Origin: a virus
Strand: one strand, 5' to 3'
Virus record (IMG/VR): IMGVR_UViG_3300029220_000012
Length of the DNA: 45,172 nucleotides
A program made the position numbers and the translations under genes. Position 1 is the first letter of the stretch, and the number at the start of each line of letters is the position of its first letter. Below the pieces are notes generated by a model. That model saw only the letters and a list, made by a program, of their open reading frames with translations, ran no database searches and was not told the origin of the DNA. This document shows, piece after piece, positions 600 to 23,829 of this stretch.

Positions 600-1682
600 T
601 TATATGATGTTAGCCAGGGTTTCCGCTGCGCGCTCATCGTCACCAGGCATTACGTGGCTGTAGGTGTTGAGCGTCAGATTTGCAGTGCTGTGGCCGAGGC
701 GCTGCTGCACCGTCTTGTAGCTGGCACCGTGCTGCAGCAGGAGCGAGGCGCTGGTGTGACGCAGACTATTGAGGCAGAAGTCTTTCGGCATATCTGCGTT
801 TTTGCCGTAGCGCTTGACGAGCTTGCTTATTGCGTCAGGATTGAGCGGTCTGCCGTGCTCTCCCGGGAAAAGGAGGCCGTATGGCTGCCACAGCGCGTCG
901 CTCATGGCCTGCAGTCGGACGGTCCTTATCTGTGCCTTAATGAGCGGAAGAATCGCCTTAGGCAGGCTCACAGTGCGCCAGCTGTCCTCTGTCTTAGTGC
1001 TTGCGCCAATCTCACCGCCACCTTTGGTACGCAGGTTGGTCTGCCGGACGGTAAACGTGCACCGCTCCAGGTTTACGTCCTGATAGCGCAAACCAAGAAT
1101 TTCACTGCGTCGCATGCCGCTGGTAGCTGCCAGCTTGATGAGCAGCTGGTGCGCGGGATCAGTGATGACGGAGAGCAGCTTTGTTACCTGTGCCTGAGTA
1201 AGAGCCACCCACTCGCGCTTGCGGGTAACCTTTGGCTTTTTGATTTGTAGCATGGGATGCTTTGCAAGCACTCCGTCAATAACTGCTTGGGTAAGCAGAG
1301 CCTTGAGCGTTACATAGATATGCTCAACGGTGCGGCTGGCAAGCTTTGCTGACAGTGCGGCTATAAAGTCGCGGATATTGGCTGGCTGCAGATTGCAGAG
1401 CGGGAAGTCGCCGAGCTCCGGCTTGATGTGCACCCGGATGTGAGACTCAATCGTTGCCCAGGAATTTTTGCGTATGGCTGCGTGCTGGACGACCAGGTAA
1501 TGGTCGCACCAATCTTTGAGCAGCATGCCGCTGCTGTAGGTCCCGCTGCGTTTGGCAATCTTGAACTCCTGCACCTTGCGGTCAAGCTCTGCAGATGACT
1601 TTGCGGTGAAATAGTACTTTTTGCCGAGGTACGTCACTGTGGTGGCGTAGCGGCCGTCGGCGCGTTTCTTGTATTTTGCCAT
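600..1682 (-). CDS. int: Tyrosine recombinase (phage integrase)
   Basis: C-terminal catalytic signature LRHTSASLLLQHG...LGHSTANLTLNTYSHV (R, H-x-x-R, Y). GGAGGG RBS. Adjacent to the tRNA-like core. Confidence 0.95.
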   Translation of the reverse strand: MAKYKKRADGRYATTVTYLGKKYYFTAKSSAELDRKVQEFKIAKRSGTYSSGMLLKDWCDHYLVVQHAAIRKNSWATIESHIRVHIKPELGDFPLCNLQPANIRDFIAALSAKLASRTVEHIYVTLKALLTQAVIDGVLAKHPMLQIKKPKVTRKREWVALTQAQVTKLLSVITDPAHQLLIKLAATSGMRRSEILGLRYQDVNLERCTFTVRQTNLRTKGGGEIGASTKTEDSWRTVSLPKAILPLIKAQIRTVRLQAMSDALWQPYGLLFPGEHGRPLNPDAISKLVKRYGKNADMPKDFCLNSLRHTSASLLLQHGASYKTVQQRLGHSTANLTLNTYSHVMPGDDERAAETLANII

Positions 1683-1811: not shown

Positions 1812-2627
1812 TTATTTTTTATATTTAAATTTATGATCACTTAGGGGATGACCACAGGCGCAGCCAAGCTCCAAGATATCATTGTTATAAATGGGAAGAA
1901 GTTTGCACTTTTTTTCATCCTTACACAATTTATTACTAGCTCCACTAGTACCTATGCCAAAAATAGAACCTATGGCTCCTAATGTATTTATCTTAGTTCC
2001 GACAACAACACGACAATTATAATCTTTAATTTTTTCATTTTGCTCTTCAGCTTCTGCTAAAATTTTTTCTTCTTTGGCTTTGGCAAACGGAACTAGTATT
2101 TCATTTACATATTTATGTGTCATAGCATTAATAATTTTATCTTCGTCAAAGGTTGCTGTTTGCTTTTTGTTAATATAATCAAACCATAATTCTACTCTTT
2201 CTTCAAAAAGCGTAGCATGTTGTTCCAAAGCTGCAACTGATGTATGAAAACAACCTTCTTCAGTTCCTTGCAAAGCAAGCCAATGAATATAGCCACCAGC
2301 AGTTGGGAGGTAATTGTATGAGTTATTGCCGCCATAAGCATTCATTCTGGATACAATATTTGCCATTGCACGCTCTTGCTTATATTTTGCATTATATTTA
2401 TTCCAAGCTTCGTTCATGCTTGCATTGTTGGCATCAATTGCTGCCTGAACTGAGTCAAGCATTTTTTGTTTAGTAGAACTAAATGCTTCATTAGCAGTTT
2501 GTCCGTTTATAATAATATCATCAAATTGAGCAACAACTCCACTTGCGAGCGGCGTTTTAAACTCATGTGCTATTGCAATGTTTGGAACAAATGCTGCTAA
2601 AAGCAAAGCAAATAATATTTTCTTCAT
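1812..2627 (-). CDS. Secreted protein of unknown function (AT-rich moron)
   Basis: Signal peptide MKKILFALLLAAFVPNIAIA. Visibly AT-richer than its flanks. Cys cluster at the C-terminus. Sits between int and the repressor. Confidence 0.75.
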   Translation of the reverse strand: MKKILFALLLAAFVPNIAIAHEFKTPLASGVVAQFDDIIINGQTANEAFSSTKQKMLDSVQAAIDANNASMNEAWNKYNAKYKQERAMANIVSRMNAYGGNNSYNYLPTAGGYIHWLALQGTEEGCFHTSVAALEQHATLFEERVELWFDYINKKQTATFDEDKIINAMTHKYVNEILVPFAKAKEEKILAEAEEQNEKIKDYNCRVVVGTKINTLGAIGSIFGIGTSGASNKLCKDEKKCKLLPIYNNDILELGCACGHPLSDHKFKYKK

Positions 2628-3383: not shown

Positions 3384-3399
3384 GAAAGGTGGTGAGAAA

Positions 3400-9260: not shown

Positions 9261-9268
9261 GGGAAACG

Positions 9269-9433: not shown

Positions 9434-9542
9434 AATCTGTCTGGTGTTTGCAGTGCTGATCAGCATTGTGTGGATAGTGAGCCTGACGGTGTTAGTTGGT
9501 TGCGGTGCTATATGGGCGCTGCAGAAGTTAGGAGGAATGTAA
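9423..9542 (+). CDS. 39-aa single-TM small protein (not in ORF track)
   Basis: Overlaps the previous ORF by 11 nt. Its stop abuts ATG 9543. TM segment ICLVFAVLISIVWIVSLTVLVG. Confidence 0.35.
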   Translation: MLSKICLVFAVLISIVWIVSLTVLVGCGAIWALQKLGGM

Positions 9543-9995: not shown

Positions 9996-10503
9996 ACAAT
10001 ATCTGATGTTGAATCTGGAGTCTGACACCTTTAAGGGCATGAAGGCCGATTTTGATGAGCTGCTGCAGCAGCTTCTGGAGAAGCTCTTTGCTGGCCGTAT
10101 TGCTGATGGCTCTATCAGCATGAAGTTGTCCGTCAGCTTGACCGAAACCTATTCCGAAACAATGGGTAAGGACATTTCTGTACCGCTGTTCAAACATAAA
10201 ACTACCGCCAATTACACGGAGAAGCTGGAGAATGCCGGTGCTGTCTCCCTGCCTAACACGTATCTGGAATACGACGAAGACCTCGGGGAGTTCGTCCTGA
10301 AGCCTTGCGGCGGCGAGCAGGACATGTTCGCGGAGCAGGAAGCTGAGGTTGATGAAGTAACTGTTGACGTTAAAGCCATTCCGCAGGACTGCCACCGTCC
10401 CCTGCAGGTGCGTGATCCTATGTGCAATGACTGCGCTAATCGCGATACCAGCGCCTGCGACCATTGCGATGGCTGCGACAAGTGGGAGCCTACGGTAAAA
10501 TGA
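9988..10503 (+). CDS. Hypothetical protein with C-terminal Cys cluster
   Basis: AAAAGGAGG before ATG 9988, so the track start at 9949 is rejected. C-terminus CNDCANRDTSACDHCDGCDKW. Confidence 0.7.
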   Translation: MNKQYLMLNLESDTFKGMKADFDELLQQLLEKLFAGRIADGSISMKLSVSLTETYSETMGKDISVPLFKHKTTANYTEKLENAGAVSLPNTYLEYDEDLGEFVLKPCGGEQDMFAEQEAEVDEVTVDVKAIPQDCHRPLQVRDPMCNDCANRDTSACDHCDGCDKWEPTVK

Positions 10504-11906: not shown

Positions 11907-12330
11907 ATCTGAAGCTCAAATCATGAAGGAGATTGAGGTCGCGGTGTCTGCTGCAGGGCACAAGATTTTCCGCGTCAATGTTGGCGAGGGCTATCTGTAC
12001 CGCACGCAGCCGACGCAGGCGACGCTTGACCTTGAGAACAAGCGCAGCCGCTGGTTTAAGAGCGGACCGCCGCAAGGCTACAGCGATTTGTCTGGTGTAG
12101 CGTATCCGTCGGGCAAGGCAATCTTTATCGAGTGCAAGACGGCAACCGGCAAGCCGACGCTGCAGCAGTGCGTGTTCCTACTGGCGATGCTAGCGGCAGG
12201 CGCCAATGCTGGTATCGCACGCAGCTCCGAGGAGGCGTTGGCGATTTGCGAGATGACGGACGACCTGCGTCAGAAGATGGGAGAGTATATCCATGGCTGG
12301 TTGGTTAAGCTTAGGCAGCGTGGTAAGTGA
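11899..12330 (+). CDS. VRR-NUC family nuclease
   Basis: PD-(D/E)xK-type core GYSDLSGV...IFIECK. TTG start 7 nt after AGGAGG. Typical partner of the upstream helicase. Confidence 0.75.
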   Translation: MNKSEAQIMKEIEVAVSAAGHKIFRVNVGEGYLYRTQPTQATLDLENKRSRWFKSGPPQGYSDLSGVAYPSGKAIFIECKTATGKPTLQQCVFLLAMLAAGANAGIARSSEEALAICEMTDDLRQKMGEYIHGWLVKLRQRGK

Positions 12331-12610
12331 TCCGTGGCCTGATTGTACCGACAGCGAGTTCTGGGGGCAGCTGCTACCAAGTGCTGCCCGCCATGACCAT
12401 AAGCTGTATGTTAAGCTCATCGGTCTGCGCTTTGCCGGAGCAGAGCTGTTGCCTAGTGCACGCTTCGGGCTGCGCCTGGTCATGGCTAACAAGGCGACGG
12501 TGACTCAGCAGGAGGCGAGGGAGCTGCTTGCTCCCCACTCTGAGCTGTTGCTTAATTTATTTTTACACATAGGAGGTGGCGCAGGTGGACAACAAAAAAC
12601 TGATCCATGA
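12293..12610 (+). CDS. Questionable ORF filling the gap before the regulator gene
   Basis: Only an open frame. Overlaps both neighbours, no clear RBS. ATG 12482 is an alternative start. Confidence 0.3.
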   Translation: MAGWLSLGSVVSDPWPDCTDSEFWGQLLPSAARHDHKLYVKLIGLRFAGAELLPSARFGLRLVMANKATVTQQEARELLAPHSELLLNLFLHIGGGAGGQQKTDP

Positions 12611-13094
12611 CACTGTTGTAGCGACGCTGGCTGCCTTAAATAGCCAGCCTAAGCCGCAGGATTGCTACAAGGCAACGGAAGCACGGCTGTATGCTTACTC
12701 GACGCTGCGCGCGAACATTGAGCAGTACAAGCTTGATATCCGTGACCTGAAGACGGAGCGTGTCACAGAAAAATCTAAAGACATTACCTGCTGGGGCGGC
12801 GCAAGTTCTCGCCTGACGCCCGAAGAGAAGCAGCAGGCACGCATTATGGCTGTAGAAGTTAAGCTGGCGCGTGATCAGGCGGAAGTTGATAAAATTGACC
12901 GCATCTTGAACAGGCTGGAAGCAAGCGAGGATGCGGTGGCGGTAGACCTTATCCGTCAGGCGTATTTTTTCTGCGTGCCTTTGGATGATATTGCGCTGCG
13001 TGCAGGTGTGTCGCTCTCGACCATCCAGCGCAGGCGTACGCGCCTGGTGCGGCAGCTAGCGTTGATGTTATATGGAGCGGAGGCGTTGATGTAA
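12585..13094 (+). CDS. Sigma-70 region-4-like transcriptional regulator (RinA/ArpU-type late activator candidate)
   Basis: C-terminal HTH DDIALRAGVSLSTIQRRRTRLVRQL. GTG 12585 lies 8 nt after AGGAGG. Confidence 0.6.
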   Translation: MDNKKLIHDTVVATLAALNSQPKPQDCYKATEARLYAYSTLRANIEQYKLDIRDLKTERVTEKSKDITCWGGASSRLTPEEKQQARIMAVEVKLARDQAEVDKIDRILNRLEASEDAVAVDLIRQAYFFCVPLDDIALRAGVSLSTIQRRRTRLVRQLALMLYGAEALM

Positions 13095-13333
13095 TGACAA
13101 TTCTTTCACGTGAACGTATCTTGAAGACGAAAGTCACTTGCAAGACTAGCCGCATCTGCCAGCGTCAGCGGCAGTGGGCAACTCTTAGAGTGGTACAAAA
13201 ATCCACGGCTATTGGACCTAGCTTTATTTCCCAATTAATCCGCAAGCACCGCGAAGTTGTATTACTTCGCAGCGCTCGTGGCTGCTGTCAAGTTTTTGCT
13301 TATTGCATAACGGAGGTGACACAAATATTATGA
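13094..13333 (+). CDS. Hypothetical basic 79-aa protein
   Basis: TAATG overlap at the start and ATGA overlap at the end suggest translational coupling. Composition is odd (Arg/Cys-rich). Confidence 0.45.
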   Translation: MTILSRERILKTKVTCKTSRICQRQRQWATLRVVQKSTAIGPSFISQLIRKHREVVLLRSARGCCQVFAYCITEVTQIL

Positions 13334-13563
13334 TTAGTTTGTATCCTGTGATTGCTGAAAAATTGCATATCCCTGTTGGCAAGGAGTTTAAGCTCAAGCC
13401 TAAGCGTGGCGGAGTATATCCGGCGCAGTACCGTTTCAGTGCTGATGATTTGGAGTACTGTCCAAGGCAGTGCTGCTATTGGGTAAGCATTGGTAATCAG
13501 CCCATGCAGATGCGTATTTTTCTGGCTTTACTGCGTGGCGGCGTGGAGGTAGTAAAGGAGTAA
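13330..13563 (+). CDS. Hypothetical 77-aa protein
   Basis: ATG 13330 coupled by ATGA. Shares the pattern IAEKL..VG.EFK...F with 13789..14214. Confidence 0.6.
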   Translation: MISLYPVIAEKLHIPVGKEFKLKPKRGGVYPAQYRFSADDLEYCPRQCCYWVSIGNQPMQMRIFLALLRGGVEVVKE

Positions 13564-13775
13564 TGAAAGAGAAAAAACTTTATACATGTGAAATCTGCCA
13601 TACTGATTACGCTGACAAAAATAGATGTCGTGAATGCGAGAAATCGCATAATATTGATTTGCAGATTAAGGCAATAGGTAAGTATAAACCTATTGGTGTT
13701 TGCAGTGATGGTTTCCCTTACAGCATTACTATTAGTACTGCTGACGGGAAAAGAGAATATACATACCATCGTTGA
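13563..13775 (+). CDS. 70-aa zinc-ribbon protein
   Basis: CEICH...CRECE pairs. TAATG overlap with the upstream ORF. Confidence 0.65.
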   Translation: MKEKKLYTCEICHTDYADKNRCRECEKSHNIDLQIKAIGKYKPIGVCSDGFPYSITISTADGKREYTYHR

Positions 13776-13788
13776 GAGGTGATTAAAG

Positions 13789-14214
13789 ATGAGTAAAAAT
13801 CTTCTCCCAGAAATCGCTAAGATGCTGGATGTAGAGATGTACGAAAAATTTAAAATCGAGGGCATGAGCTCTGACCTGGTTTTCCGAATCGGTGTAGACG
13901 GACTCGAAATGGAACGTTTTGACTATGCTGAGGATGACCGTATATGGGTGACTCTTGCTTCGTGCAATTTTGTTGATTTGTTGACTGGTAAGGCAAAAAT
14001 TGTTAAACTGCCGTGGAAGCCTGCTTATCGTCAGAAGTATTGGACTTTTGGCTTAAAAGATGGTATTTGGGTAGTTGTACCGAGAGAGTGGGAAGATTAT
14101 CCTGCTGAAATTCTTTTAGCAGACAAAGGATGGACATATCGCACACGTGAAGAAGCCTGCGCCGCTTTGCCTGGAGTGGCGAAAGAAATAGGTGTTGAGT
14201 TTATAGTTAAGTAG
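13789..14214 (+). CDS. Hypothetical protein
   Basis: RBS GAGAGGTG. 141-aa ORF. Confidence 0.7.
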   Translation: MSKNLLPEIAKMLDVEMYEKFKIEGMSSDLVFRIGVDGLEMERFDYAEDDRIWVTLASCNFVDLLTGKAKIVKLPWKPAYRQKYWTFGLKDGIWVVVPREWEDYPAEILLADKGWTYRTREEACAALPGVAKEIGVEFIVK

Positions 14215-14312
14215 GACTCTAAATTTATAAAGCAGGCACCTACTCAACGTTTCCTGATGAAATTCACGATGAAGTCGACATCATTTTTCCGGAAGGCTGC
14301 CACGAAGTAAAA

Positions 14313-14453
14313 ATGCGTGACGACACCGCCGCCATCGAGTGGCCGGACGGACACATTACATTGTCCACCGAAATTTTCACGGAACACCGCGGTGGTACGG
14401 CAGTGCCCTATGTGGTTGACTGCAGCGGTCAATTCCCTAAAAAATTTACTTGA
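14313..14453 (+). CDS. Possible short ORF or gene remnant (open frame from 14223 without a canonical start)
   Basis: The frame 14223-14453 reads protein-like (FPDEIHDEVDIIFPEGCHEVKMRDDTAAIEWPDGHITLSTEIF...). The only ATG is internal at 14313 and has a weak RBS. Confidence 0.3.
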   Translation: MRDDTAAIEWPDGHITLSTEIFTEHRGGTAVPYVVDCSGQFPKKFT

Positions 14454-14468
14454 AAGCTAAAAAATGAC

Positions 14469-14497
14469 TTGAAGCAGTGAAAAAAAAGCGGTATAAT
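14469..14497 (+). promoter_or_regulatory. Promoter P6 (TTGAAG-17 bp-TATAAT, preceded by AAAATGAC)
   Basis: Near-consensus hexamers. Shares the ATGACTTG motif of the promoter family. Confidence 0.7.
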
Positions 14498-14503
14498 ATA
14501 ACC

Positions 14504-14635
14504 ACGGAGAAGTGTCGATAAAAGCGGCATTCGCCTGCCACTTCTCGTTGCGAAGCGGTGCGTATTTTGACTGAATGCGCACCGCTTTACTATATTGTGT
14601 ATGTAGCGTCTGGCTTTTAGCCGGGCGCTTTTTTT
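14504..14635 (+). ncRNA. Candidate ~130-nt structured RNA or leader, class unknown
   Basis: No credible ORF or RBS. Hairpins at 14507-14546 (8 bp, GAGAAGTG/CACTTCTC) and 14553-14587 (12 bp). Terminator at the 3' end. Confidence 0.45.
14606..14635 (+). terminator. Intrinsic terminator
   Basis: Stem GCGTCTGGC/GCCGGGCGC (two G-U pairs), 5-nt loop, then T7 (14629-14635). Confidence 0.75.
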
Positions 14636-14719
14636 ATGCCCGGAAGCCGTAACCTAAGGGACGGAACATCCCTTATTATTCTCAAATCCTCAGCGGTAGT
14701 CCGGGCACCAATAAATGAC

Positions 14720-14748
14720 TTGCAATTATCGCGGGAGTGAGTTAACAT
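14720..14748 (+). promoter_or_regulatory. Promoter P2 (TTGCAA-17 bp-TAACAT)
   Basis: Family member with AAATGAC upstream and GAGT before the -10. The -10 overlaps ATG 14747. Confidence 0.55.
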
Positions 14749-15766
14749 GCTTATAAGACCTTTAATTATTGCTGCGAGAATTTTGGATGAAGATTATCCG
14801 AAAGACCCGAATCCTGAAAATTGGCGTACTATCAGTGGTGCAAAAGTGCATCTGAACGAAAAAGGTCAGATTGACGGTGGTGCTGGCAGTAAGTTTAATA
14901 AGAAAAAATTCGGCAGCAATTTTAGTGCTCAAGAAGGTTTTTCTGGAGAATATGCAGCGCCGAACTCTTCTGAGGAAAAATCGCCTATCAAAAAAGCAGC
15001 TTCTGTCTTTACTGAAGCATCTGTACAGCCATACAATGCCCAGGAGAGTAATTATCCGTTCCGTAAATCAAATTACACTAAGGCGCATAAGGATACTGCT
15101 GTGTGGTGCAAATCCATGGAAGAATCGAAGAAAAAATTTGATGCGCAAGCTCTTACTGTCTGGGAATCTGCAAATCATGAAGAACGTGAAGCTATTAAAA
15201 AATATACGGCCGAGTATGAGCAATTTAATGACCCTTTGCGCGGTTATGAATACGGGACTGGCCAATATAAAGGTGTAGGGAGTATTGACTTTGAGAATAT
15301 TGGCAATAATAGTTATGGTAAATTAAAACCTGGCGAAGCTAGAGACCTAATCACAAATATGACCAACTACATTGACCGTAGTGCTTTTGATGAGGATATC
15401 TGGCTGCAGCGTGGTTGCAGTTTTATAGGCATGGATAAATTTTTCAATCTCCGAAAGCCGATGCAAGACTACACTCTTGATGAGCTGAGAGCTGAAATTT
15501 TAGGTACTAAACCCACAGAACATGGTTTCATGTCTTGTGGCGCTGCCAAAGGTACAGGCTTTGATAAAAAACCAGTTATTCTTAATATTTATGCTCCAGC
15601 AGGAACTAAAATGGCTTATACTGCTAATTTTTCTATTTTCGAAGAAGAAAATGAAATGGTTTTGCAGCGCGGCACGCAGTTTCGCGTTGCAAAAGTAGAA
15701 GAAAAACCTGGCGAAGGCTTCTTTATTGACCTTGAGGTCGTTGGTTACAATATACAGAAAGTGTAG
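14747..15766 (+). CDS. Mono-ADP-ribosyltransferase, C3/VIP2-like (R-S-ExE class)
   Basis: Arg motif WLQRGCSF, STS-position FMSCG, ExE motif EENEMVLQRG. Start ambiguous: ATG 14747 (SD GGGAG 14733-14737) lies inside P2, and TTG 14783 is the first start reachable from a P2 transcript. Confidence 0.85.
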   Translation: MLIRPLIIAARILDEDYPKDPNPENWRTISGAKVHLNEKGQIDGGAGSKFNKKKFGSNFSAQEGFSGEYAAPNSSEEKSPIKKAASVFTEASVQPYNAQESNYPFRKSNYTKAHKDTAVWCKSMEESKKKFDAQALTVWESANHEEREAIKKYTAEYEQFNDPLRGYEYGTGQYKGVGSIDFENIGNNSYGKLKPGEARDLITNMTNYIDRSAFDEDIWLQRGCSFIGMDKFFNLRKPMQDYTLDELRAEILGTKPTEHGFMSCGAAKGTGFDKKPVILNIYAPAGTKMAYTANFSIFEEENEMVLQRGTQFRVAKVEEKPGEGFFIDLEVVGYNIQKV

Positions 15767-15775
15767 GTAAAAATC

Positions 15776-16006
15776 ATGGGATTATATGAACGTCATGCAG
15801 ACGAATTGTTGAGTGATAATACTCATAATGCCGGGTACGAGCAGTGTAAGGAGTGCGTTTATTCCGGTAAGCCGGGAACGGCTGCTTATAGCCGTTGCAT
15901 CTGTGACAAGTATCCATTGAGCGATGGTGATGATCAATGGGCAACCAGCAAGCCTGATGGTATTGAAGATGGCTCGTTAAGATGCAAATTTAGAAAAGAC
16001 CGTTAA
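15776..16006 (+). CDS. 76-aa Cys-rich (zinc-binding-like) protein
   Basis: CKEC...CICDKY...C pattern. 10 nt downstream of the ADPRT stop. Confidence 0.6.
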   Translation: MGLYERHADELLSDNTHNAGYEQCKECVYSGKPGTAAYSRCICDKYPLSDGDDQWATSKPDGIEDGSLRCKFRKDR

Positions 16007-16020
16007 TGTTAAATAAATGA

Positions 16021-16049
16021 CTTGAATGTTTTAAGTATTAGAGTTAACA
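16021..16049 (+). promoter_or_regulatory. Promoter P3 (TTGAAT-17 bp-TAACAT)
   Basis: AAATAAATGACTTG is identical to P4. GAGT before the -10. Confidence 0.55.
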
Positions 16050-16062
16050 TAACAACAATCAA

Positions 16063-16248
16063 GTGAAAGGTTGTGATTATGTTATGGAAAAACAGATTTA
16101 TTACGATTATTTAGAAGAGCTGCGTCAGTCTGGCGTAACGAATATGTTCGGTGCTGCTCCGTATCTCATGCGTGAATTTGATTTGAGTTATGATGAAGCA
16201 TCAAAAATACTTAGCGACTGGATGGGTAGCTACAAGCAACCAGAATAA
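16063..16248 (+). CDS. Hypothetical small protein (start GTG 16063 or ATG 16084)
   Basis: ORF between P3 and a terminator. Core sequence YLEELRQSGVTNMFGAAPYLMREF. Confidence 0.6.
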   Translation: MKGCDYVMEKQIYYDYLEELRQSGVTNMFGAAPYLMREFDLSYDEASKILSDWMGSYKQPE

Positions 16249-16275
16249 CTTACTATCAAAAAAATCACTAACGTA

Positions 16276-16310
16276 AACCTCGAGCTTAACGGCTCGGGGT
16301 TTTTCTGTTT
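16276..16310 (+). terminator. Intrinsic terminator
   Basis: Stem AACCTCGAGC/GCTCGGGGTT with a 6-nt loop, followed by TTTTTCTGTTT. Confidence 0.7.
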
Positions 16311-16322
16311 CCGGAGGTAATT

Positions 16323-17624
16323 ATGAAAATCATTGATATGCCCATCGGCGATGTGATCCCGTATAAAAACAATCCGCGGCGCAATGATGCAGCCGTGAAG
16401 CCGGTTATGGAATCTCTGAAGGAGTTCGGCTGGAAGCAGCCTATTGTTATCGACAAGAATAATGTTATCGTCTGTGGGCACACCCGCTTGCGTGCCGCTA
16501 AACGACTTAAGATGAAGACTGTGCCGTGCGTGATGGCGGATGACCTTACGCCGGAGCAGATTAAAGCGTTCCGGCTGGCGGATAATAAAACCGCCGAGTT
16601 TGCAAGCTGGGACATGGATATGCTCAACAGCGAGCTGCTCGACATCAAAGGTATAGACATGGGCGACTTTGGCTTCGACATGCCGGAGCCTGAACCGGAG
16701 GAGGATGCTTTTGATGTGGATACAGCGCATGAGGAAGCTGCTAAGAATCCTGTAACTACGCCGGGCACGCTGTACCAGCTCGGGAACCATCGCTTATTAT
16801 GTGGCGATTCAACAAATCGTACTGATGTAGCACGTTTATTGGGGGGGCAAATGGTTGACATGGTGTTTACCGATCCTCCCTATAATGTCGCTTACCAAGG
16901 CGGCACAAAAGACAAGCTCACCATTAAAAACGATTCCATGAGTGAGGCTGAATTCAAAAACTTTTTAGATGCAGTGTTTGATAATTATTTTGCGGCGATG
17001 AAGCCCGGCGCGTCCTTTTACGTGTGCTACGCTAGTCGCAGTGCAGTCGAGTTCCGACAGGCTATTGTTGATGCCGGTCTGCTGCTGAAGCAGGACCTTG
17101 TCTGGTGCAAGAACACGTTTACTCTGGGAAGGCAGGACTACCAATGGCAGCATGAGCCTATCCTTTACGGCTGGAAGCCTGGCGCGAAGCACCGCTTTTT
17201 TGGCGGTCGTAAGCTGTCAACAGTTATCCCAGACAACTATCCGGTGGAGGTTGGCTACGATGCCGATGGGCATCAGCTCATCCACATCAGCATCGGGCTT
17301 AAGACCGTCTGTCTGCGTGCCGATAACGTAGAGGCTGTGGACACAGAAGAGGTTAACAGCGTAATCCATGTTGACAAGCCCACGCGCAACGCCGAGCATC
17401 CCACCATGAAGCCGATTGCCCTCTGTGCTAAGTGCATCAAGAATAGCTGCCAGCAAGGTGATGCTGTGCTTGATTTGTTTGGCGGCTCTGGCTCCACGCT
17501 CATTGCCTGCGAGCAAATCAACCGCCAATGCTACAGCATGGAGCTTGATCCTGTGTACTGCGATGTCATCGTTAAGCGTTGGGAAGCTCTCACCGGCAGG
17601 AAGGCCGAGGTAATCGGTGGCTAA
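16323..17624 (+). CDS. DNA methyltransferase (N6-A/N4-C type) with N-terminal ParB-like nuclease domain
   Basis: ParB-like VCGHTRLRAAKRL. Catalytic FTDPPYNV. SAM-binding VLDLFGGSGST. Confidence 0.9.
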   Translation: MKIIDMPIGDVIPYKNNPRRNDAAVKPVMESLKEFGWKQPIVIDKNNVIVCGHTRLRAAKRLKMKTVPCVMADDLTPEQIKAFRLADNKTAEFASWDMDMLNSELLDIKGIDMGDFGFDMPEPEPEEDAFDVDTAHEEAAKNPVTTPGTLYQLGNHRLLCGDSTNRTDVARLLGGQMVDMVFTDPPYNVAYQGGTKDKLTIKNDSMSEAEFKNFLDAVFDNYFAAMKPGASFYVCYASRSAVEFRQAIVDAGLLLKQDLVWCKNTFTLGRQDYQWQHEPILYGWKPGAKHRFFGGRKLSTVIPDNYPVEVGYDADGHQLIHISIGLKTVCLRADNVEAVDTEEVNSVIHVDKPTRNAEHPTMKPIALCAKCIKNSCQQGDAVLDLFGGSGSTLIACEQINRQCYSMELDPVYCDVIVKRWEALTGRKAEVIGG

Positions 17625-18039
17625 TGAACAGAACCTCAATCCTTGCCGAAGCAAGAGCGAAGCAAGAGAAAGAGGTGCTGCTGGTGGTGTAAAATCTGGT
17701 GAAGCCCGGCGCCGCAAACGTGCTATGCGTGAGGTCCTTGATGACCTGCTGCAGATGCCGCTCAAACGTGGCGAGCTGAAGAATGTTGAGTGCCTGGGTG
17801 ACCTGATGGGGCCGAACGGTAAGATTAACCTGCTGAACGGTAAAATCAATGTAACCGTGGAGCAGGCTGTGTTGCTTGGTCAGGTCGTGCTTGCTATGCA
17901 GGGCAATACCAAGGCTGCGACATTCTTGCGTGACACGGCAGGGCAGAAAATTCTTAAGGATGCCGAAGAGCAGTCTCAATATGAGGACGATGGCTTTACC
18001 GACGCAATCAAGCGCAGTGCAAAGGATGTGTGGAAATAA
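17617..18039 (+). CDS. Terminase small subunit (putative)
   Basis: Basic N-terminus GGVKSGEARRRKR and the motif AMQGNTKAATFLRDTAGQK resemble small terminases. Immediately upstream of TerL. Confidence 0.65.
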   Translation: MANEQNLNPCRSKSEARERGAAGGVKSGEARRRKRAMREVLDDLLQMPLKRGELKNVECLGDLMGPNGKINLLNGKINVTVEQAVLLGQVVLAMQGNTKAATFLRDTAGQKILKDAEEQSQYEDDGFTDAIKRSAKDVWK

Positions 18040-19379
18040 TGGGCATCGTTGGCAGGCTGCGCAGTATTATCAAACCTGTTATCAAGTTCTATGAGTTTAG
18101 TAAAAAACAAATGCAAATCTTGACGTGGTGGTGTGAAGATTCTCCCTACCACGATTACAATGGCATCATAGCTGACGGCTCCATCCGTGCTGGTAAAACG
18201 GTAGCGATGGCCGTCTCTTTTGTCATTTGGGCTATGGACAGCTACGATGGCCAGAATTTTGCCATGTGCGGTAAAACCGTAGGCAGCTTCCGGCGTAACG
18301 TCTGGAAATGGCTCAAGCCTGTACTGCTGGTGCGTGGCTATCAGGTGGAAGAATCACGCACGGAAAACCTTATCGTGATAGCTCGCAAGCAAGGCAGCAC
18401 GATGAAGCTGAATTACTTCTACGTGTTCGGCGGCCGCGACGAATCCTCGCAGGACCTTATTCAAGGTATTACTTTGGCTGGTCTGTTTTGCGATGAGGTT
18501 GCGCTCATGCCTGAATCATTTGTAAATCAGGCATCCGGCCGCTGCTCTGTGCCGGGCGCTAAGCTGTGGTTTAACTGCAACCCGGACAGCCCGATGCACT
18601 GGTTCCTGTTGCGCTGGATTGAGAAGTGCGACGAGAAGCGCTTGCTGCATATCCATTTCCTGATGGACGACAATCCGTCGCTATCTGACGAGGTACGTGA
18701 ACGCTACCGGACGATGTATTCCGGTGTGTTCTACCGACGCTTTATTCTAGGCGAGTGGGTAATGGCGCAGGGCGCTATCTATCGTGATGCGTGGAGTGAT
18801 GAGCTGCTCTTTGGTGATGATCAGCTGGAGTACCTGCTTAAAAATCTGCACATCATGCGCCGCTCCATTACGATTGACTATGGCACCGTGAACCCGATGG
18901 TGTATCTGGACGTGCTCGATGATGGGCGCGACCTGTGGTTTATCCGCGAGTATTATTGGGACAGCCGTGCTGAAGAAAAGGAGAAGGACAACAGCCAGTA
19001 CGCCGACGACCTGCTTGAGTTCGTGCGTGGTGTGGAGCTGTGGCCGACAAATGTGGTCATAGATCCATCTGCAGCCAGCTTTAAGATTGAGCTGCGTAAC
19101 CGTGGCTTGCGTGCAAAGGAGACGGTGGAAACAATCAACGCCGACAATGATGTCATTGAGGGCATCCGCAAGGTGAACACGCTGCTAACCCGTCGCCGCA
19201 TCCATTTTTATTGTGGCTTAGTGCACACGCTGAAGGAGATGCAGTCCTATTGTTGGGACGACAAGGCTCTGCAGCAGTCTGGCAAGGAGAAGCCTATTAA
19301 AGTAGCTGACCATGCGCCTGATGCGGTGCGCTACTATGTATCAACAGTCATCAGGCCAAGGAGGATAGCAAATGTCTAA
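18039..19379 (+). CDS. terL: Terminase large subunit
   Basis: Walker A-like ADGSIRAGKT, Walker B-like LFCDEV. TAATG overlap start at 18039 (track start at 18030). Confidence 0.9.
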   Translation: MGIVGRLRSIIKPVIKFYEFSKKQMQILTWWCEDSPYHDYNGIIADGSIRAGKTVAMAVSFVIWAMDSYDGQNFAMCGKTVGSFRRNVWKWLKPVLLVRGYQVEESRTENLIVIARKQGSTMKLNYFYVFGGRDESSQDLIQGITLAGLFCDEVALMPESFVNQASGRCSVPGAKLWFNCNPDSPMHWFLLRWIEKCDEKRLLHIHFLMDDNPSLSDEVRERYRTMYSGVFYRRFILGEWVMAQGAIYRDAWSDELLFGDDQLEYLLKNLHIMRRSITIDYGTVNPMVYLDVLDDGRDLWFIREYYWDSRAEEKEKDNSQYADDLLEFVRGVELWPTNVVIDPSAASFKIELRNRGLRAKETVETINADNDVIEGIRKVNTLLTRRRIHFYCGLVHTLKEMQSYCWDDKALQQSGKEKPIKVADHAPDAVRYYVSTVIRPRRIANV

Positions 19380-20847
19380 AAGAAAACGCAGGCGCGCCCT
19401 TGACAAAGCTCCTGAGCCGCAGCCAATACGCAGCAGGGCGCTCGACGCGTTTAGTAACGTACTGGCTCGTTTGGGTGCTGGTACTCCGAATCTGTTGGAA
19501 GGCACGGAGTACAGTCTGCAGCGCATGTCGCGTGATTTCAACACTCTAAATGCTCTCTACCGTGAGAGCTGGATTGTCCGTCGTATCATCGACGTTATCC
19601 CGGCGGACATGCTTAAAAATTGGATAACGATTACGAGCGGTCTGGATCCCGATGTAGAGAAGCGGCTCAGTCTTACTTTGCGCCGTACTCAGCTCATTGA
19701 CAAGCTTAAGCGTGGCATGCAGTGGGGCAGGCTCTACGGTGGCGCGTTAGGCGTGATGCTGGTCAAACACCAAGGCTACGACCTTAGCCAACCGCTGCAG
19801 CTTGACTGGATAATGCCTGGCGATTTCGCAGGGCTGCTTATCTTCGACCGCTGGAACGGAGTTAACCCATCCAGCGAACTCATCGAAGATATTAGTGATC
19901 CTGATTACGGTTTTCCAAAATATTACACTGTGACTGATCCTGCCGGTGGTGGCTCCGTGAAGATTCATCATAGCAGGGTAGTTCGTTTTACTGGTAACGA
20001 ACTACCTTTTTGGGAGGAAATTGCCGAGATGCAGTGGGGTGCGTCGGTCGTTGAGTCTATTTTTGATGAGCTGCGTAAGCGTGACAATGTAAGCTGGAAC
20101 ATTGCGCAGTTGACCTTCATGGCGAACATCCGCGTGCTTAAAATGCAGGACTTAGGTCAGCTTCTGGCGGCAACGGACAACGAGTCGCAGGCTGAGCTGC
20201 TGCGAACGCTGGAAGCGCAGAACATGCTGCTGAACAATATGGGCATGCAGGTTATGGATGCTGCAGATGGTCTGGAAACACACCAGTATACTTTCGGCGG
20301 CCTTGCTGACTGCTATCAGCAGTTTATCATGGACATCAGCGGCGCTGCTGAAATTCCGGTGACGCGTCTGTTCGGGCGCTCTCCCTCTGGCCTTAATGCT
20401 ACAGGCGAGAGTGACCTACAGAACTACTACGACATGATAGCTGAGAAGCAGGAGTCTTATCTGCGTCCTATCTTGAACAAAGTGCTTCCGCCGTTCATCA
20501 TCTCGACACTAGGCAGCCTGCCTGATGACTTTGATTTTGAATTCGACCCGGTTGCAGAGCCTACCGACAAAGAGCGCGCCGACCTTGCCAAGTGTGGCAC
20601 AGACAATGTTGTGGCTGCCTACAATGCTGGTCTTATCTCTCAGCGCACTGCTCTGAAGGAGTTGAAGCAGCAGAGCGAGCGCACCGGTGTCTGGACGAAC
20701 ATCACCGATGAGGACATCGAGCGCGCATCTGACTCTGTGGAGCCGCCTGGCGAGATGGGAGGCATGTTTGGCGACATGGGCGGTGGCGAGGCTGCTGGTG
20801 CTGTTGGTGTTGAACCTCAGCAAAATAAACCGCCTGAATCTGAATAA
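19372..20847 (+). CDS. Portal protein
   Basis: 491 aa, overlaps the TerL stop by 8 nt. Position and size. Resembles DUF1073-type portals from memory. Confidence 0.8.
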   Translation: MSKRKRRRALDKAPEPQPIRSRALDAFSNVLARLGAGTPNLLEGTEYSLQRMSRDFNTLNALYRESWIVRRIIDVIPADMLKNWITITSGLDPDVEKRLSLTLRRTQLIDKLKRGMQWGRLYGGALGVMLVKHQGYDLSQPLQLDWIMPGDFAGLLIFDRWNGVNPSSELIEDISDPDYGFPKYYTVTDPAGGGSVKIHHSRVVRFTGNELPFWEEIAEMQWGASVVESIFDELRKRDNVSWNIAQLTFMANIRVLKMQDLGQLLAATDNESQAELLRTLEAQNMLLNNMGMQVMDAADGLETHQYTFGGLADCYQQFIMDISGAAEIPVTRLFGRSPSGLNATGESDLQNYYDMIAEKQESYLRPILNKVLPPFIISTLGSLPDDFDFEFDPVAEPTDKERADLAKCGTDNVVAAYNAGLISQRTALKELKQQSERTGVWTNITDEDIERASDSVEPPGEMGGMFGDMGGGEAAGAVGVEPQQNKPPESE

Positions 20848-20852
20848 ATGAC

Positions 20853-20881
20853 TTGCAATAATTATACATGAGAGTTAATAT
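20853..20881 (+). promoter_or_regulatory. Promoter P4 (TTGCAA-17 bp-TAATAT)
   Basis: Starts at the portal stop codon (TAAATGACTTGCAA). GAGT before the -10. GGAGG and ATG 20913 follow 32 nt later. Confidence 0.55.
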
Positions 20882-20912: not shown

Positions 20913-21710
20913 ATGGATAAAACTAAACTTAACCTGGAACGCTTGCGTGCTTATGATGCTGAATGGGAAGAAGATAAGCACCCGCGTGCTGAAAACGGAC
21001 AGTTCACTTCAGGTAGTGGCAGTGCTGGTGGCGGAACTGAAAGCGGTAGTAAGTACGGCTACAGTCGTTCTGAGCAGCATGTTGCCAGTAAAATGGAAGA
21101 ATGGGGCAATGAGCAAGGAAACATTGCTGCACTTGAAGCTGCCGATGCTTTCCGTGATGCGCGTGAAGATGAAAATGATATGCGTGAAGTCTTGAAATCT
21201 GTACGTCAGCATTTAGTAGAAAACGAAGATGACATTCGTGGTTATGATGAAAATCCCAAAAATTTTGACAAGGTTATGGAACAGCTGGATGATATGGAGT
21301 CTATGCTTAATGACCAAGATACTTATGAATTCAAGCACGGTGAAATTAAATCTCCGCTCCGTCAGGCTGCTGAGGCGGTGCAGGGCGGCGATGGCAGGCT
21401 TAAAGGTTACAAGGGCTTGAGCTTTACACAGGAAACCAGCGAGGCTGATTCTGGCACTCCTGCCGGCGAGGTACATAATTTCATTGTTGGCAACCTTAAA
21501 GGCAAGGAACCGACGAAGGAAAATGTAACGGCTGCGTGCAAGCAGGTAGTAAATATGCTGAATGACGATATTAAATATCTGAGTGAGCGCGCTGCCACAG
21601 CTAGACGTTATGGCAATGAACAGGCTGCTAAGGAAGGGGAAGCAAATATTGAAAAGCAGCAACAAAGAATACAAGCTGCTTATGAGGTTACAATGGGTTT
21701 TAGTAAATGA
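20913..21710 (+). CDS. Acidic hypothetical protein inserted between portal and MuF-like genes
   Basis: RBS ACGGAGG before ATG 20913, so the track start at 20868 lies inside the promoter. N-terminal EEDKHPRAENGQFTSG motif. ATGA coupling into the next gene. Confidence 0.75.
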   Translation: MDKTKLNLERLRAYDAEWEEDKHPRAENGQFTSGSGSAGGGTESGSKYGYSRSEQHVASKMEEWGNEQGNIAALEAADAFRDAREDENDMREVLKSVRQHLVENEDDIRGYDENPKNFDKVMEQLDDMESMLNDQDTYEFKHGEIKSPLRQAAEAVQGGDGRLKGYKGLSFTQETSEADSGTPAGEVHNFIVGNLKGKEPTKENVTAACKQVVNMLNDDIKYLSERAATARRYGNEQAAKEGEANIEKQQQRIQAAYEVTMGFSK

Positions 21711-22546
21711 AAAAATTTAAAATGCCGCGAGTCATTGAACGCTCTTATGCCAGCGCCATTGACCGCCTGATGCAAGGACTGAAGCGTGAGTTATCTCACG
21801 TTGCCAGTCCTTTTTTTATTGCTGACATAATGCGTCGGCTGGCTCGTTCTCCGACTTTTATCCAAGCCTGCGACCAAATCGCACGCTCGATGGCCACGCA
21901 TCTGTTCCGCGACGGGCATAAGACGTGGCGTGCCGCAGCAGCCGAGGGCAGCAAGGGGCGAATCATCCGCACCGCTCTACAGCGCGAGCTTGCCTCGCCA
22001 CGCGTCGCAAAAGTGTACGAGGGTATAATCAGTCGCAACGCTGAATTAATCCGCTCTATGCCGCTCACGCTGGCTGATAGGGTGGCTCATAAGGTTGCTA
22101 AAGGTTATGAGCAAGGCTTGCGACCGGAGGCGATGATAGACGATATCCTCAAGGAGTACCCGCACATGACCGAAGCTCATGCAAGGCTCATTGCCCGCAC
22201 GGAAACGTCTAAAGCCAGCACGGCTCTGACGCAGGTGCGGGCTGCTGAGGCAGGGCTTGAGTGGTATGTCTGGCGGACGAGCGAGGACTCTCGTGTGCGT
22301 TCTGCTCACGCTCATATGGATGGCGTGATTATCCCTTGGAGCGAGGCACCGGCGCCGGAACTGCTTAACCATGAGAAGTCGCAAGGGTACTACCATGCGG
22401 GGAACATTTATAATTGCCGCTGCTATCCTGAGCCGCTTATCAGGTTTGACCAGGTGGCGTGGCCAGCTAAGGTGTACCGCAACGGCAAAATCGAGCGCAT
22501 GGGCATAAAACAATTTAAGAAATTATTACCTGGAGGTGAGCTATGA
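21707..22546 (+). CDS. Head morphogenesis protein (SPP1 gp7 / Mu F-like)
   Basis: ARTETSKA...WRTSEDSRVRSAHAHMDG...YNCRCYPEP motif set. Confidence 0.85.
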   Translation: MKKFKMPRVIERSYASAIDRLMQGLKRELSHVASPFFIADIMRRLARSPTFIQACDQIARSMATHLFRDGHKTWRAAAAEGSKGRIIRTALQRELASPRVAKVYEGIISRNAELIRSMPLTLADRVAHKVAKGYEQGLRPEAMIDDILKEYPHMTEAHARLIARTETSKASTALTQVRAAEAGLEWYVWRTSEDSRVRSAHAHMDGVIIPWSEAPAPELLNHEKSQGYYHAGNIYNCRCYPEPLIRFDQVAWPAKVYRNGKIERMGIKQFKKLLPGGEL

Positions 22547-23829
22547 GCAAGGCATATTTTGGCTCACGAATCTCCGACCACATCCTCAAAACGCCGGAGG
22601 GCTTCTTGATCTGTAAGGATGTTCCGATTGCTCGTACCGGTACGCAGCAGTATAGAGGCTGCGAGTTTGGCGGTCCGGTCGCTGATGGCATTTATAATGT
22701 CCAGCGCCCTGAAGCCGAAGTCTTTGACCGTGCTGCCGTGGCAAGCTTTGAGGGGAAGCCTGTATGCGATGAGCATCCGGAGGAAGATGTAACCCCTGAT
22801 AATTATGGGCGGTACATGAAAGGCGTGTGCCGTGATGTGCGTCGGGGCGATGGCGACTTGAGTAATTGCCTGGTCGCTGATTTAGTTATTTACGATGCTG
22901 ACCTTATCAATAAGATTGAGGCTGGCAAACGCGAGATATCTTGCGGCTATGACTGCTTGTGGAATCCGACGAGTGACTCCAGCTATGACCAGCTGGAAAT
23001 CCGCGGTAACCATGTAGCGGTTGTTGATAGAGGCAGGGCGGGGCACAAGGTGGCAATCCGTGACACTGCCGACGATAAAAAAGGAGGTACAAAAATGTCT
23101 AAATCTTTGATTGGACGTATCCTGCGAGCGTTGGCTCGCGACGAATCTACTACACCTGAGGACATGGAGGCTGCTGCAAAGCTTGCAGGTAGCTCTGACG
23201 CTGAGCCGCGTCCTCAGCCTGCACCAGCTCCTGCTCCTGCAGCTCCCGCAGCTCCTGCAACACCTGCACCTGCTGCTGTGCCGCAGCCTGAAAATAAACC
23301 TGCAGCAATGGATGAGGCTACTGAGGCGCGTTTCAAGAAAATTGAGGACGCGCTGGAAGCTATCAGCTCTAAGCTGAATCCTGCGCAGCCTGCTACTGAA
23401 CCTAAAAAGGATGCTCTGGACGCGCTGGAGGAAGAGCTCCAAAACAAAGCGCCTGCTGCTGAAACAGCTCCTGCCGGTGATGAGGACGATGTAATCGAGC
23501 CGCCTGAAGATATCAATGCTCAGGATGCAGCGCCGGAAGAAGATGTTGAGGGCGAGTGTGTTCCCAATGCTAAAGAAGCACGTGACGCTGCTATGGCTTT
23601 AATCAAAAATTTGAAGCCTGCAGTAGCAGCCATTCCAAATGAGGCACAGCGCAAACGTGCGGCCGACTCTCTGGCTATCCTCATCAAAGGCTCTATGCAG
23701 CAGGATGCTCAATATGGCGAGCTGATGCAGATGCGTCGTCGTAAAGCTGCACAAGACAGCAAGCCTGATGATTACGCTCTGGGACGTGAAATTGCAAAAA
23801 AATATAATCCCCATTATAAAAATCGCTAA
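22543..23829 (+). CDS. Scaffold-like head protein with Pro/Ala-rich linker
   Basis: Lies between the MuF-like and capsid genes. The N-domain resembles DUF2213-type proteins from memory. Linker PAPAPAPAAPAAPATPAPAA, acidic helical C-terminal half. Confidence 0.65.
   Translation: MSKAYFGSRISDHILKTPEGFLICKDVPIARTGTQQYRGCEFGGPVADGIYNVQRPEAEVFDRAAVASFEGKPVCDEHPEEDVTPDNYGRYMKGVCRDVRRGDGDLSNCLVADLVIYDADLINKIEAGKREISCGYDCLWNPTSDSSYDQLEIRGNHVAVVDRGRAGHKVAIRDTADDKKGGTKMSKSLIGRILRALARDESTTPEDMEAAAKLAGSSDAEPRPQPAPAPAPAAPAAPATPAPAAVPQPENKPAAMDEATEARFKKIEDALEAISSKLNPAQPATEPKKDALDALEEELQNKAPAAETAPAGDEDDVIEPPEDINAQDAAPEEDVEGECVPNAKEARDAAMALIKNLKPAVAAIPNEAQRKRAADSLAILIKGSMQQDAQYGELMQMRRRKAAQDSKPDDYALGREIAKKYNPHYKNR

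Follow-up and report, generated by a model that had tools for sequence, protein, structure and literature searches.

A phage ADP-ribosyltransferase gene with a widespread N-terminal leader, a putative split form of MuF-type polymorphic toxins

What does a toxin-like ADP-ribosyltransferase (ART) do in a phage that encodes it as a gene of its own, at a distance from the head protein MuF? The IMG/VR virus record IMGVR_UViG_3300029220_000012, analysed here over its full 45,172 nucleotides (hereafter the window), raises this question through a two-gene cassette, in which the gene for a 339-amino-acid (aa) ART precedes a cysteine-rich open reading frame (ORF) of 76 aa (Table 1). An initial annotation, made from the letters of the sequence, had regarded the enzyme as the detached counterpart of MuF-fused toxins, and our analyses agree: its nearest relative outside the family is a MuF-ART fusion, and genes with the same N-terminal leader follow MuF in related phages. 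The enzyme itself is ordinary; the interest lies in the leader. The ART is probably cargo of the phage head, because its leader is common to hundreds of phage proteins and usually stands beside MuF, and we consider it rather likely that the cassette represents a split form of the MuF-type phage polymorphic toxin.

Both ORFs occur exactly where they had been placed, the first on the plus strand with an ATG start and the second 10 nt downstream in the same frame, and the full R-S-ExE signature reported for the former is borne out. The profile PF03496 (ADPrib_exo_Tox) matches residues 129–319 of the 339-aa product at 73.9 bits (E=1.4e-20), against a curated cut-off of 23.4 bits; it is the sole Pfam match, and a MuF domain was not found in the protein. 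The leading PHROG match is 16625, ‘Bxa ADP-ribosyl transferase’ (5e-25), followed by phrog_3895, ‘ADP-ribosyltransferase exoenzyme toxin’, aligned over residues 36–334 of 339; a match to phrog_115, ‘minor head protein’, is limited to the ART part (residues 95–337 against profile positions 472–664). Sequence matches in the PDB are Lmo0066 (8za7), C3larvin, C3bot2/C3, Certhrax and VIP2. The catalytic residues are R222 (nt 15410-15412) in WLQRG from residue 219, S263 (as S-C-G; nt 15533-15535) in FMSCG from residue 261, and E301-N-E303 (nt 15647-15655) in EENEM from residue 300. R222, S263, E301 and E303 are invariant across 24 homologues with identity down to 30%, and the three motifs line up with their equivalents in Lmo0066, C3larvin and C3bot2. 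Since E301 and E303 sit opposite the Q and E, respectively, of the C3larvin QxE in the HMMER alignment, the ADP-ribosylating turn-turn (ARTT) motif is ExE as in Lmo0066, and not QxE.

Structure prediction and homology are in accord on the fold. An AlphaFold2 (AF2) model based on the 24 homologues has a predicted local distance difference test score (pLDDT) of ~90 over residues 105–335, and Foldseek aligns the ART domain with Lmo0066 (8za7_B; E=4.9e-14, target-normalised TM score 0.82, probability 1.00) and, at E ~1e-13, with C3, Certhrax, Plx2A and VIP2; the TM scores of 0.77–0.83 for C3 and Lmo0066 chains are normalised to single-domain targets. The protein thus bears the three marks of the R-S-E clade of ARTs, namely the PF03496 profile, the R/S/[Q/E]xE residues and the ART fold, and is an intact stand-alone R-S-ExE ART of the C3/VIP2/Bxa/Lmo0066 kind with predicted activity. 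Its acceptor is probably arginine, to judge from the ExE motif and the N-linked products of Bxa (PMC11699363).

Homologues of the protein form three groups. The first is the family proper, 53–99% identical, including forms of 410–453 aa in which 71–100 aa are inserted into the spacer after residue ~73. A BFVD match of 66% identity (E=1e-50) to the ‘VIP2’ of Myoviridae sp. ctCop38 (UniProt A0A8S5MY36), together with the span of phrog_3895, means that leader-ART proteins of this kind have already been deposited and named by homology; family and architecture are the same, the name is given at the level of the domain only, and leader, partner and cassette are undescribed there. In one viral contig (L021, 2344-3577) the leader ORF ends at 59 aa and the ART resumes in another frame, which points to a frameshifted pseudogene or else to a fault in the assembly. 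The second group consists of remoter ARTs, among them protein P0025, 40% identical over the ART domain; its N-terminus is a MuF/head-morphogenesis domain (phrog_7625 at 4e-41; phrog_115), making this MuF-ART fusion the closest protein outside the family whose N-terminus differs. Proteins of the third group have in common only the first ~55 residues (68–82% identity) and continue into different domains at the C-terminus, P0039, P0042 and P0043 having DUF3560 and P0041 having Gln_amidase.

This leader comprises an amphipathic helix (~residues 4–16) and the motif DYPKDPNPENW-RTISGAKVHL-NEKGQIDGGAG, predicted to form a three-stranded mini-sheet (strands 26–29, 32–36 and 41–45; pLDDT 74–80 at residues 21–50 when the leader is modelled alone with 46 sequences). 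A 75-position profile, run against 1.84 billion representative proteins, matched at least 398 clusters (50% identity) at E<=1e-3, of which 171 reached E<=1e-10; the match lies within the first ~75 residues in nearly all, and the proteins are 59–1000 aa long. Pfam domains among 140 representatives are ADPrib_exo_Tox (12), Gln_amidase (6), DUF3626 (4) and one each of DUF3560, PBECR1 and ATLF-like, with ~110 representatives having none. The kinds of cargo comprise ART, glutamine deamidase, PBECR1 RNase, zincin, DUF3560 and mostly (~80%) unknown. By these alignments the leader is demonstrably a constant module set before many unrelated C-terminal domains in phages, and a constant N-terminal module before diverse C-terminal domains, here in 398 clusters, is a hallmark of polymorphic toxins (taken after Zhang et al. 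2012).

Seven larger proteins, five of them giants, contain 2–6 leader-like copies each; P0114 has them at residues 72, 447 and 875, around an ART (653–857) and an ATLF-like domain (1096–1175). The giants (P0044, of 2042 aa, P0057, P0114, P0168 and P0174) carry 3–6 leader-like motifs (WITTENGHKVHL, WVTIKGTHVLL) spaced 300–400 residues apart, mostly lack any Pfam domain and resemble polyvalent proteins. The N-terminal motif had initially been likened to the linker that precedes toxin modules inside MuF fusions. It is indeed a recurrent module header, but not such a linker: P0025, the one fusion examined, lacks the leader and leader proteins lack MuF, which makes the leader look like an alternative to MuF fusion. 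No Pfam, NCBIfam or PADLOC model matched the leader, even on giant proteins with six copies, and neither Pfam and NCBIfam nor the papers searched describe it as a defined module, report its breadth or mention that it alternates with MuF fusion; the same sources yielded no account of the MuF-to-leader junction or of the co-variation of cargo and partner presented below, although such absence is no proof of novelty. Overlaps of an 18-residue beta-hairpin with choline-/glucan-binding repeats (Foldseek, nothing significant) were discounted as evidence.

Where do leader genes lie? In the window the head genes follow the ART in the order terminase large subunit (TerL), portal, MuF, protease/scaffold-like, cement and major capsid protein (MCP). 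The MuF-like gene that had been located about 6 kb downstream is there, 5.9 kb away, as a stand-alone head protein. The portal gene occupies 19372..20847, and 22543..23829 encodes a Pa193_gp24-like protein. The same order (ArpU-like regulator, small ORFs, leader-ART, 76-aa ORF, ParB-methyltransferase, small terminase-like gene, TerL, portal, variable gene, MuF) recurs in related loci L001 (99% identical), L004-L007 and L012-L021, and L012-L026 retain the ArpU/RinA-like gene 5' of the cassette. In L008 (leader-DUF3560) and L009 (leader-Gln_amidase) the leader gene is likewise placed just upstream of terminase genes in a related head module. The gene directly 5' of the terminase genes (16323-17624) encodes a fusion of a ParB N-domain with an N6-N4 DNA methyltransferase (phrog_498, 3.5e-155), a position conserved in most related loci.

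Among 41 leader-bearing IMG/VR loci, annotated by local phmmer against the head proteins of the window and L008, 22 have the order TerL-portal-MuF-[leader gene]-Pa193_gp24-like-cement-MCP, and two (L030, L040) have the leader gene between portal and MuF. Cargo after MuF is commonly a second, remoter ART type, 26–28% identical to the window ART (L027, L035, L038, L039, L043-L047, L049, L051); that of L031 is zincin-like, from the HEIGH motif in its translation, and L032, L033, L042 and L050 have short ORFs. Gene order thus demonstrates a tie between the leader gene family and MuF and portal, and places the family, in most relatives, within the head-assembly module.

The contact can be intimate. 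In seven of the ten MuF/leader junctions read, MuF ends ...RKRFEGGF-TGA and the leader GTG follows 2 nt on, with GGAGG in the MuF 3' end; genes overlap in L027, and L035 and L042 have a TAG stop with the start codon several nt on. The common junction, GAAGGAGGATTC-TGA-TG-TGG, occurs in L031, L032, L037, L038, L043, L044 and L050 at ~5895-5920 (2300-2320 in L043), with the Shine-Dalgarno (SD)-like GGAGG 1 nt ahead of the last MuF sense codon and the stop, and the leader frame, +1 relative to MuF, is open upstream. The simple reading would be re-initiation at the GTG; a prfB-like +1 shift, which would yield some MuF-leader-cargo fusion, is conceivable.

A second gene of similar design lies in the window between portal and MuF, overlapping the MuF start by 4 nt. 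Its product has a helix, then AEWEEDKHPRAENGQFTSGSGS, a G/S linker and a variable body; it has no Pfam match, and phrog_30637 covers only residues 24–55. The slot is hypervariable, containing 130+188 aa in L001, 256 aa in L004 and 380 aa in L005. In L035 the two leader types follow MuF one after the other, and the N-terminus of the L042 protein is a hybrid.

That the C-terminal part is exchanged as a unit is apparent from a sister phage, L023, which matches the window at 12006-13863 and then, at 83%, at 14596-14897, a stretch spanning the terminator, the promoter-like element and leader codons 1–50. From 14897 to 16254 there is no similarity; it returns at 16254-16304 (94%, blastn) and again from 17971. 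Between the breaks L023 has a papain/Gln-deamidase-like cargo and an unrelated 79-aa ORF. The alignment demonstrates that recombination exchanges everything past about residue 50 and, with it, the small ORF that follows. Displacement of the cassette with a break at the end of the constant module is a further hallmark of polymorphic toxins.

The 76-aa ORF, which the initial annotation had proposed as a partner or an unrelated gene, is no unrelated neighbour. It always begins 10 nt after the ART, or lies within a longer 79-aa call (L001, L004-L007, L012-L021), and its protein diverges less than the ART does (80% against 68% identity in the same comparison), with invariant cysteines C24-x2-C27 ... 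C41-x-C43 ... C70. Searches of the family libraries (Pfam, PHROG, NCBIfam, PADLOC) gave no match and 5.8 billion proteins yielded no distant homologue; there are only three close clusters among the latter, for which reason the protein is confined to the window-type ART subfamily. Small-ORF type co-varies with cargo type. The window-type ART is paired with the cysteine-rich ORF, and the post-MuF ART with a 74–90 aa family (‘WYYKV...RRKAELY’), or a protein of 112 aa in L038, L039 and L049. The Gln-deamidase-like cargo is accompanied by a single 73–79 aa family at three genomic positions (L023, L030, L040), and the zincin (L031) and DUF3560 (L008) have none, with the next gene 55–67 nt on, as is the case for untyped cargo (L028, L032, L033, L042, L050; gap 55–98 nt). 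In L009 the leader-Gln_amidase gene is followed by a 75-aa ORF that has no relation to the 76-aa ORF. Because small-ORF type tracks cargo type across loci, the 76-aa ORF is probably the cognate inhibitor (immunity protein) of the ART; such co-variation is to be expected of cognate toxin-immunity pairs and agrees with published MuF toxins. At L010, downstream of the gene for MuF-ART P0025, a divergent 132-aa ORF and an ADP_ribosyl_GH gene lie at 9668-10827 (minus strand), a layout mirroring the Bsi and BAH immunity pair of Bxa (PMC11699363).

These features correspond largely to MuF polymorphic toxins as characterised by Jamet et al. 2017: the setting is a temperate phage (a tyrosine-recombinase-like ORF at 600..1682 was read from its translation), in or near the head module, and a small ORF with a predicted immunity role follows directly; MuF is not, however, in the same polypeptide as the toxin. 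In the mechanism that we favour, the ART gene would be expressed with the late head genes and the leader would dock the protein to MuF, the proposed partner being the MuF of the window, or to portal in the procapsid, non-covalent docking replacing the covalent MuF-toxin fusion. A few copies would be packaged and, at the next infection, injected alongside the DNA. Inside the new host cell the enzyme may use NAD+ to ADP-ribosylate bacterial proteins, probably on arginine, whether to take over the host, to counter its defences or to damage cells that lack immunity. The 76-aa protein, which is zinc-knuckle-like, would bind and block the enzyme in the producing cell or the lysogen.

Several observations weigh against this account. 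The ART gene is not beside MuF in the window, and the IMG/VR loci are not independent, many being near-identical. The docking step rests on gene order alone, since the AF2 confidence of the leader is moderate (pLDDT 56–80) and Foldseek with a 60-residue model found no fold analogue in the PDB (best E=0.8). An ADP-ribosylhydrolase (ARH) or macro-domain gene was not found in the window, unlike Bxa and the P0025 locus: tblastn of the L010 ARH and 132-aa ORF against the window gave no match, and Pfam on ten window ORFs of 220–330 aa returned replication and tail/baseplate families only, with no enzymatic immunity. The need for immunity in a late-expressed gene would be left unexplained, and with a strong terminator 90 nt upstream and a promoter -10 over the ATG the origin of a full-length mRNA is puzzling.

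A broader proposal, which we advance tentatively and hold somewhat below even, is that the leader (helix, then DYxKDPNPxNW-RTIxGxKVHL-xxxGxIDGGAGGKF) may be a portable head-loading tag that docks onto MuF or portal and marks a new trafficking class of polymorphic effectors injected by phages, with cargo types running into the hundreds and a cognate immunity protein for each toxic cargo. The HPR-motif leader of the second gene would then be a sister tag, and the repeats of the giant proteins would amount to a tag per module. MuF-type polymorphic toxins would on our account also exist in split form, with the toxin as a separate gene behind a short unannotated leader. As the leader is widespread and ~80% of its cargo is unknown, it offers a handle for new phage effectors and immunity proteins, and the MuF-to-leader junction supplies a concrete hypothesis for the recruitment of proteins into phage heads. 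If the tag proposal is true, a single short peptide would be all that is needed to bring arbitrary proteins into phage heads; once validated, a tag of ~55 aa would help to explain what temperate gut phages inject, and could be used to engineer phages that deliver protein cargo.

Of the alternatives, the one that fares best, though we think it unlikely, is a non-packaged late enzyme that modifies the host in the manner of T4 ModA/ModB, with the leader acting in regulation, localisation or assembly-linked activation and the 76-aa protein as a timing inhibitor or cofactor. The late-gene context, a promoter type held in common with head genes and the separation of the window gene from MuF would all suit such an enzyme. 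It does not account for how often the leader gene adjoins MuF or portal and starts 1–2 nt past the MuF stop, for the fact that the nearest relatives without the leader are covalent MuF fusions, or for the leader motif at the head of each module of giant polyvalent-type proteins.

Rather improbable is an exotoxin of lysogenic conversion, made by lysogens or on induction, released by lysis and acting on eukaryotic cells, with no role for the leader in virion loading. The fold and motifs are those of C3, VIP2 and Certhrax; the top PHROG is Bxa, which has been linked to modified host epithelial proteins (PMC11699363); the samples appear to be gut metagenomes, from the labels of metagenome-assembled genomes; and the cassette resembles a moron, being a low-GC island with its own promoter-like element and flanking terminators. 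Its low GC content had been remarked upon initially and is confirmed, at 0.41–0.44 across ~13,000-16,500 against 0.51–0.57 on either flank. However, sequence, Pfam and the AF2 model reveal no Sec-type signal peptide, no B or translocation component and no duplicated adaptor domain, and the closest solved relative (8za7) is the effector of an effector-immunity pair. The small ORF linked to cargo implies a target inside bacteria, and the occurrence of the leader before RNase, deamidase and zincin domains and beside MuF or portal is left unexplained.

A prophage defence, abortive-infection or addiction module, in which the 76-aa antitoxin would release the ART toxin on superinfection as in DarTG or CmdTAC, had been thought equally possible and now seems very unlikely: the two-gene layout with a small, tightly spaced partner, the low-GC island in a temperate phage and the use of ART toxins in known defence systems (PMC11618068) speak for it, but neither the ART, the 76-aa ORF nor their small neighbours match DarTG, CmdTAC or any other PADLOC system at E<=0.01, the ART gene shares the orientation of the late operon and is flanked by the late regulator and the terminase genes, members of the family sit in the head module and start 1–2 nt after the MuF stop in most junctions read, and a constant leader with variable cargo follows the logic of polymorphic effectors and not of toxin-antitoxin pairs.

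Bxa, from a Bacteroides stercoris prophage, was first reported as acting on gut epithelium and is an antibacterial MuF-ART neutralised by an ARH (BAH) and a small binder, Bsi (Alexei 2024, PMC11699363). ARTs encoded close to terminase and portal genes have been listed in phages before, with the proposal that they are packaged in the head (PMC9503650). Our reading is the MuF polymorphic-toxin model (Jamet 2017, PMC5576092) together with the head-packaged ART model (PMC5512222, PMC9503650), in split form. Bxa and MuF toxins resemble the window cassette in ART clade, temperate phage, a constant N-terminal module before a variable toxin (PMC5576092; PMC11699363), cargo (ART, glutamine deamidase) and a small ORF after the toxin gene. 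They differ in that the window ART has a ~55-aa leader without Pfam or NCBIfam model in place of a MuF domain, MuF being a separate gene; and, compared with Bxa, no BAH-like gene was found in the window and the 76-aa partner has no tblastn match to the 132-aa ORF that occupies the Bsi position in L010.

Lmo0066, the ART of an ART-ARH effector-immunity pair in Listeria monocytogenes, ranks first among PDB matches in both sequence (E=1.6e-8) and structure and has the same ExE; identity is only 27% over ~130–210 residues, its immunity is of the ARH type, and it has no phage leader. C3, C3larvin, Plx2A, Certhrax, VIP2, iota Ia and CDTa have the same fold, NAD-binding R/S motifs and ARTT glutamate, whereas the window ART, compared with C3-type exotoxins, has ExE and a phage leader, and lacks signal peptide, adaptor domain and B component. 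The marks of binary toxins (VIP1/2, iota, C2, CDT) are absent, there being a single ART domain behind 100 N-terminal residues of leader and disordered spacer, and no B-component-like gene was seen among the annotated window neighbours. T4 Alt and polyvalent proteins (Iyer et al. 2017, PMC5512222) follow the same proposed logic of head loading and injection; the match to the Alt-like PHROG 802 is weak and partial (E=0.003, residues 288–320), and neither a capsid-targeting sequence nor gp21 cleavage is demonstrable.

Table 1. Features of the window that bear on the ART cassette and its surroundings.
Feature	Position	Strand	Basis and remarks
Leader-ART gene	14747..15766	+	ATG start, 339 aa; profile, PHROG, PDB, AF2, Foldseek and BFVD matches
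N-terminal leader	14747..14917	+	Residues 1–57; profile search, local HMM (residues 3–57), AF2
Spacer, low-complexity, predicted-disordered	14918..15058	+	Residues ~58–104; pLDDT <50 at 46–102 (AF2)
ADP-ribosyltransferase catalytic domain	15059..15751	+	Residues ~105–335
Cys-rich partner ORF, 76 aa	15776..16006	+	10 nt past ART, same frame; proposed cognate inhibitor
Terminator-like hairpin	16275..16302	+	Right edge of swapped segment; L023 similarity returns here
ArpU/RinA-like late-gene transcription regulator	12576..13094	+	phrog_36 ‘transcriptional regulator’, E=2e-13; marks start of late region
Second leader-plus-variable-body gene, sister type	20913..21710	+	Translation; between portal and MuF, overlaps MuF start by 4 nt
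Stand-alone MuF (gp7-like) head protein, no toxin domain	21707..22546	+	phrog_324 ‘head morphogenesis’ 7e-54; PF04233 on L001 equivalent
Promoter-like element, copy 1	14469..14497 (45-nt element from 14463)	+	TTGAAG, 17-nt spacer, perfect TATAAT; preceded by AAAAATGAC
Promoter-like element, copy 2	14714..14748	+	AATGACTTGCAA ... GAGTTAACAT; -35 TTGCAA 14720-14725, -10 TAACAT 14743-14748
Promoter-like element, copy 3	16016..16050	+	Closes cassette; ahead of 54-aa gene 16084..16248
Promoter-like element, copy 4	20847..20881	+	Between portal gene and next gene
Promoter-like element, copy 5	44391	+	Intergenic, same consensus
Untranslated structured unit, three hairpins	14504..14640	+	Minimum free energy -61.7 kcal/mol, z = -6.7; terminator scan

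The promoter that the initial annotation had seen overlapping the SD and ATG of the ART gene proves to be one of five same-strand intergenic copies of a ~45-nt element, against 1.6 +/- 1.3 in shuffled sequence. The consensus is A(A/T)T(A/T)ATGACTTG(C/A)A-N-(A/G)GAGTTAA(C/T)AT, in short form AATAAATGACTTG[CA]A ... GAGTTAA[CT]AT, and may be read as a sigma-70-type promoter, TTG(C/A)A(A/T/G), 17-nt spacer, TA(A/T)(C/A)AT. It is probably a class of promoter specific to the phage, and may be a late one on which the ArpU-like regulator acts. The copies at 14714 and 16016 bracket the ART and 76-aa cassette exactly, and the element of the ART is common to the head-gene units at 16016 and 20847.

Copy 2 poses a difficulty over the start codon. 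Its -10 covers the first two bases of ATG 14747 and its 17-nt spacer holds the SD GGGAG (14733-14737); the overlap between -10 and ATG is kept in L001, L004, L005 and L023. Transcripts from this copy would start near 14755 and would therefore lack ATG 14747. In three sister copies the start codon lies 32–34 nt past the -10, and TTG 14783 (codon 13), which has no good SD, lies 35 nt past it. A short form would not be absurd, since the family members P0151 and P0176 start directly at the DY-KDPNP core. The long form from ATG 14747 is nevertheless clearly functional to judge from conservation, and appears to be made, because the SD ahead of that codon is maintained by three different sequences (GGGAG, GAGGTG, AAGGAG). 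Codons 5–12, with five synonymous and one non-synonymous difference from L023 and three and none from L005, seem to be under purifying selection. A full-length mRNA would need the upstream promoter (14469-14497) and passage through the structured unit at 14504-14640 and its terminators.

The last two of the three hairpins in that unit are terminator-like (14552-14588, and 14605-14629 followed by T7). Relatives L001 (9757-9849) and L004 (7758-7849) have a tRNA gene in the same slot, between promoter copy 1 and the terminator; none was found in the window. The L001 tRNA is of class II with anticodon UCA (a UGA reader; tRNA-SeC according to ARAGORN), scoring 38.2 bits in Rfam against a gathering score of 29, and that of L004 has an odd 4-base anticodon call. 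A UGA-reading tRNA thus occurs in relatives, though the phage ORFs read in the standard code. The sole Rfam match, to the ribosomal S15 leader at 14412-14511 over promoter copy 1, stayed below threshold (26.3 bits, gathering score 39.5; E=0.0034) and was taken as chance.

Megablast of 13500-17700 against 50,697 phage records gave no match, and the best tblastn match is to Bacteroides phage Versailles at 32%. Related contigs bear the bin labels Ruminococcus, Selenomonadaceae, Acidaminococcaceae and a Bacteroidaceae bin. One contig, L053 (CAVCLW010000033.1, 30.9 kb, 99% MCP), is binned as ‘Escherichia coli’; E. coli was rejected as host and the label is likely to be mis-binning, since the head region has no match in 5,426 complete E. 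coli genomes. Further low-GC islands (0.36–0.43) occur in the window at 1500-3500, 8500-9500 and 38500-40500, the first with a 271-aa protein (1812..2627, minus strand) that has a signal-peptide-like N-terminus and lies beside the integrase-like ORF.

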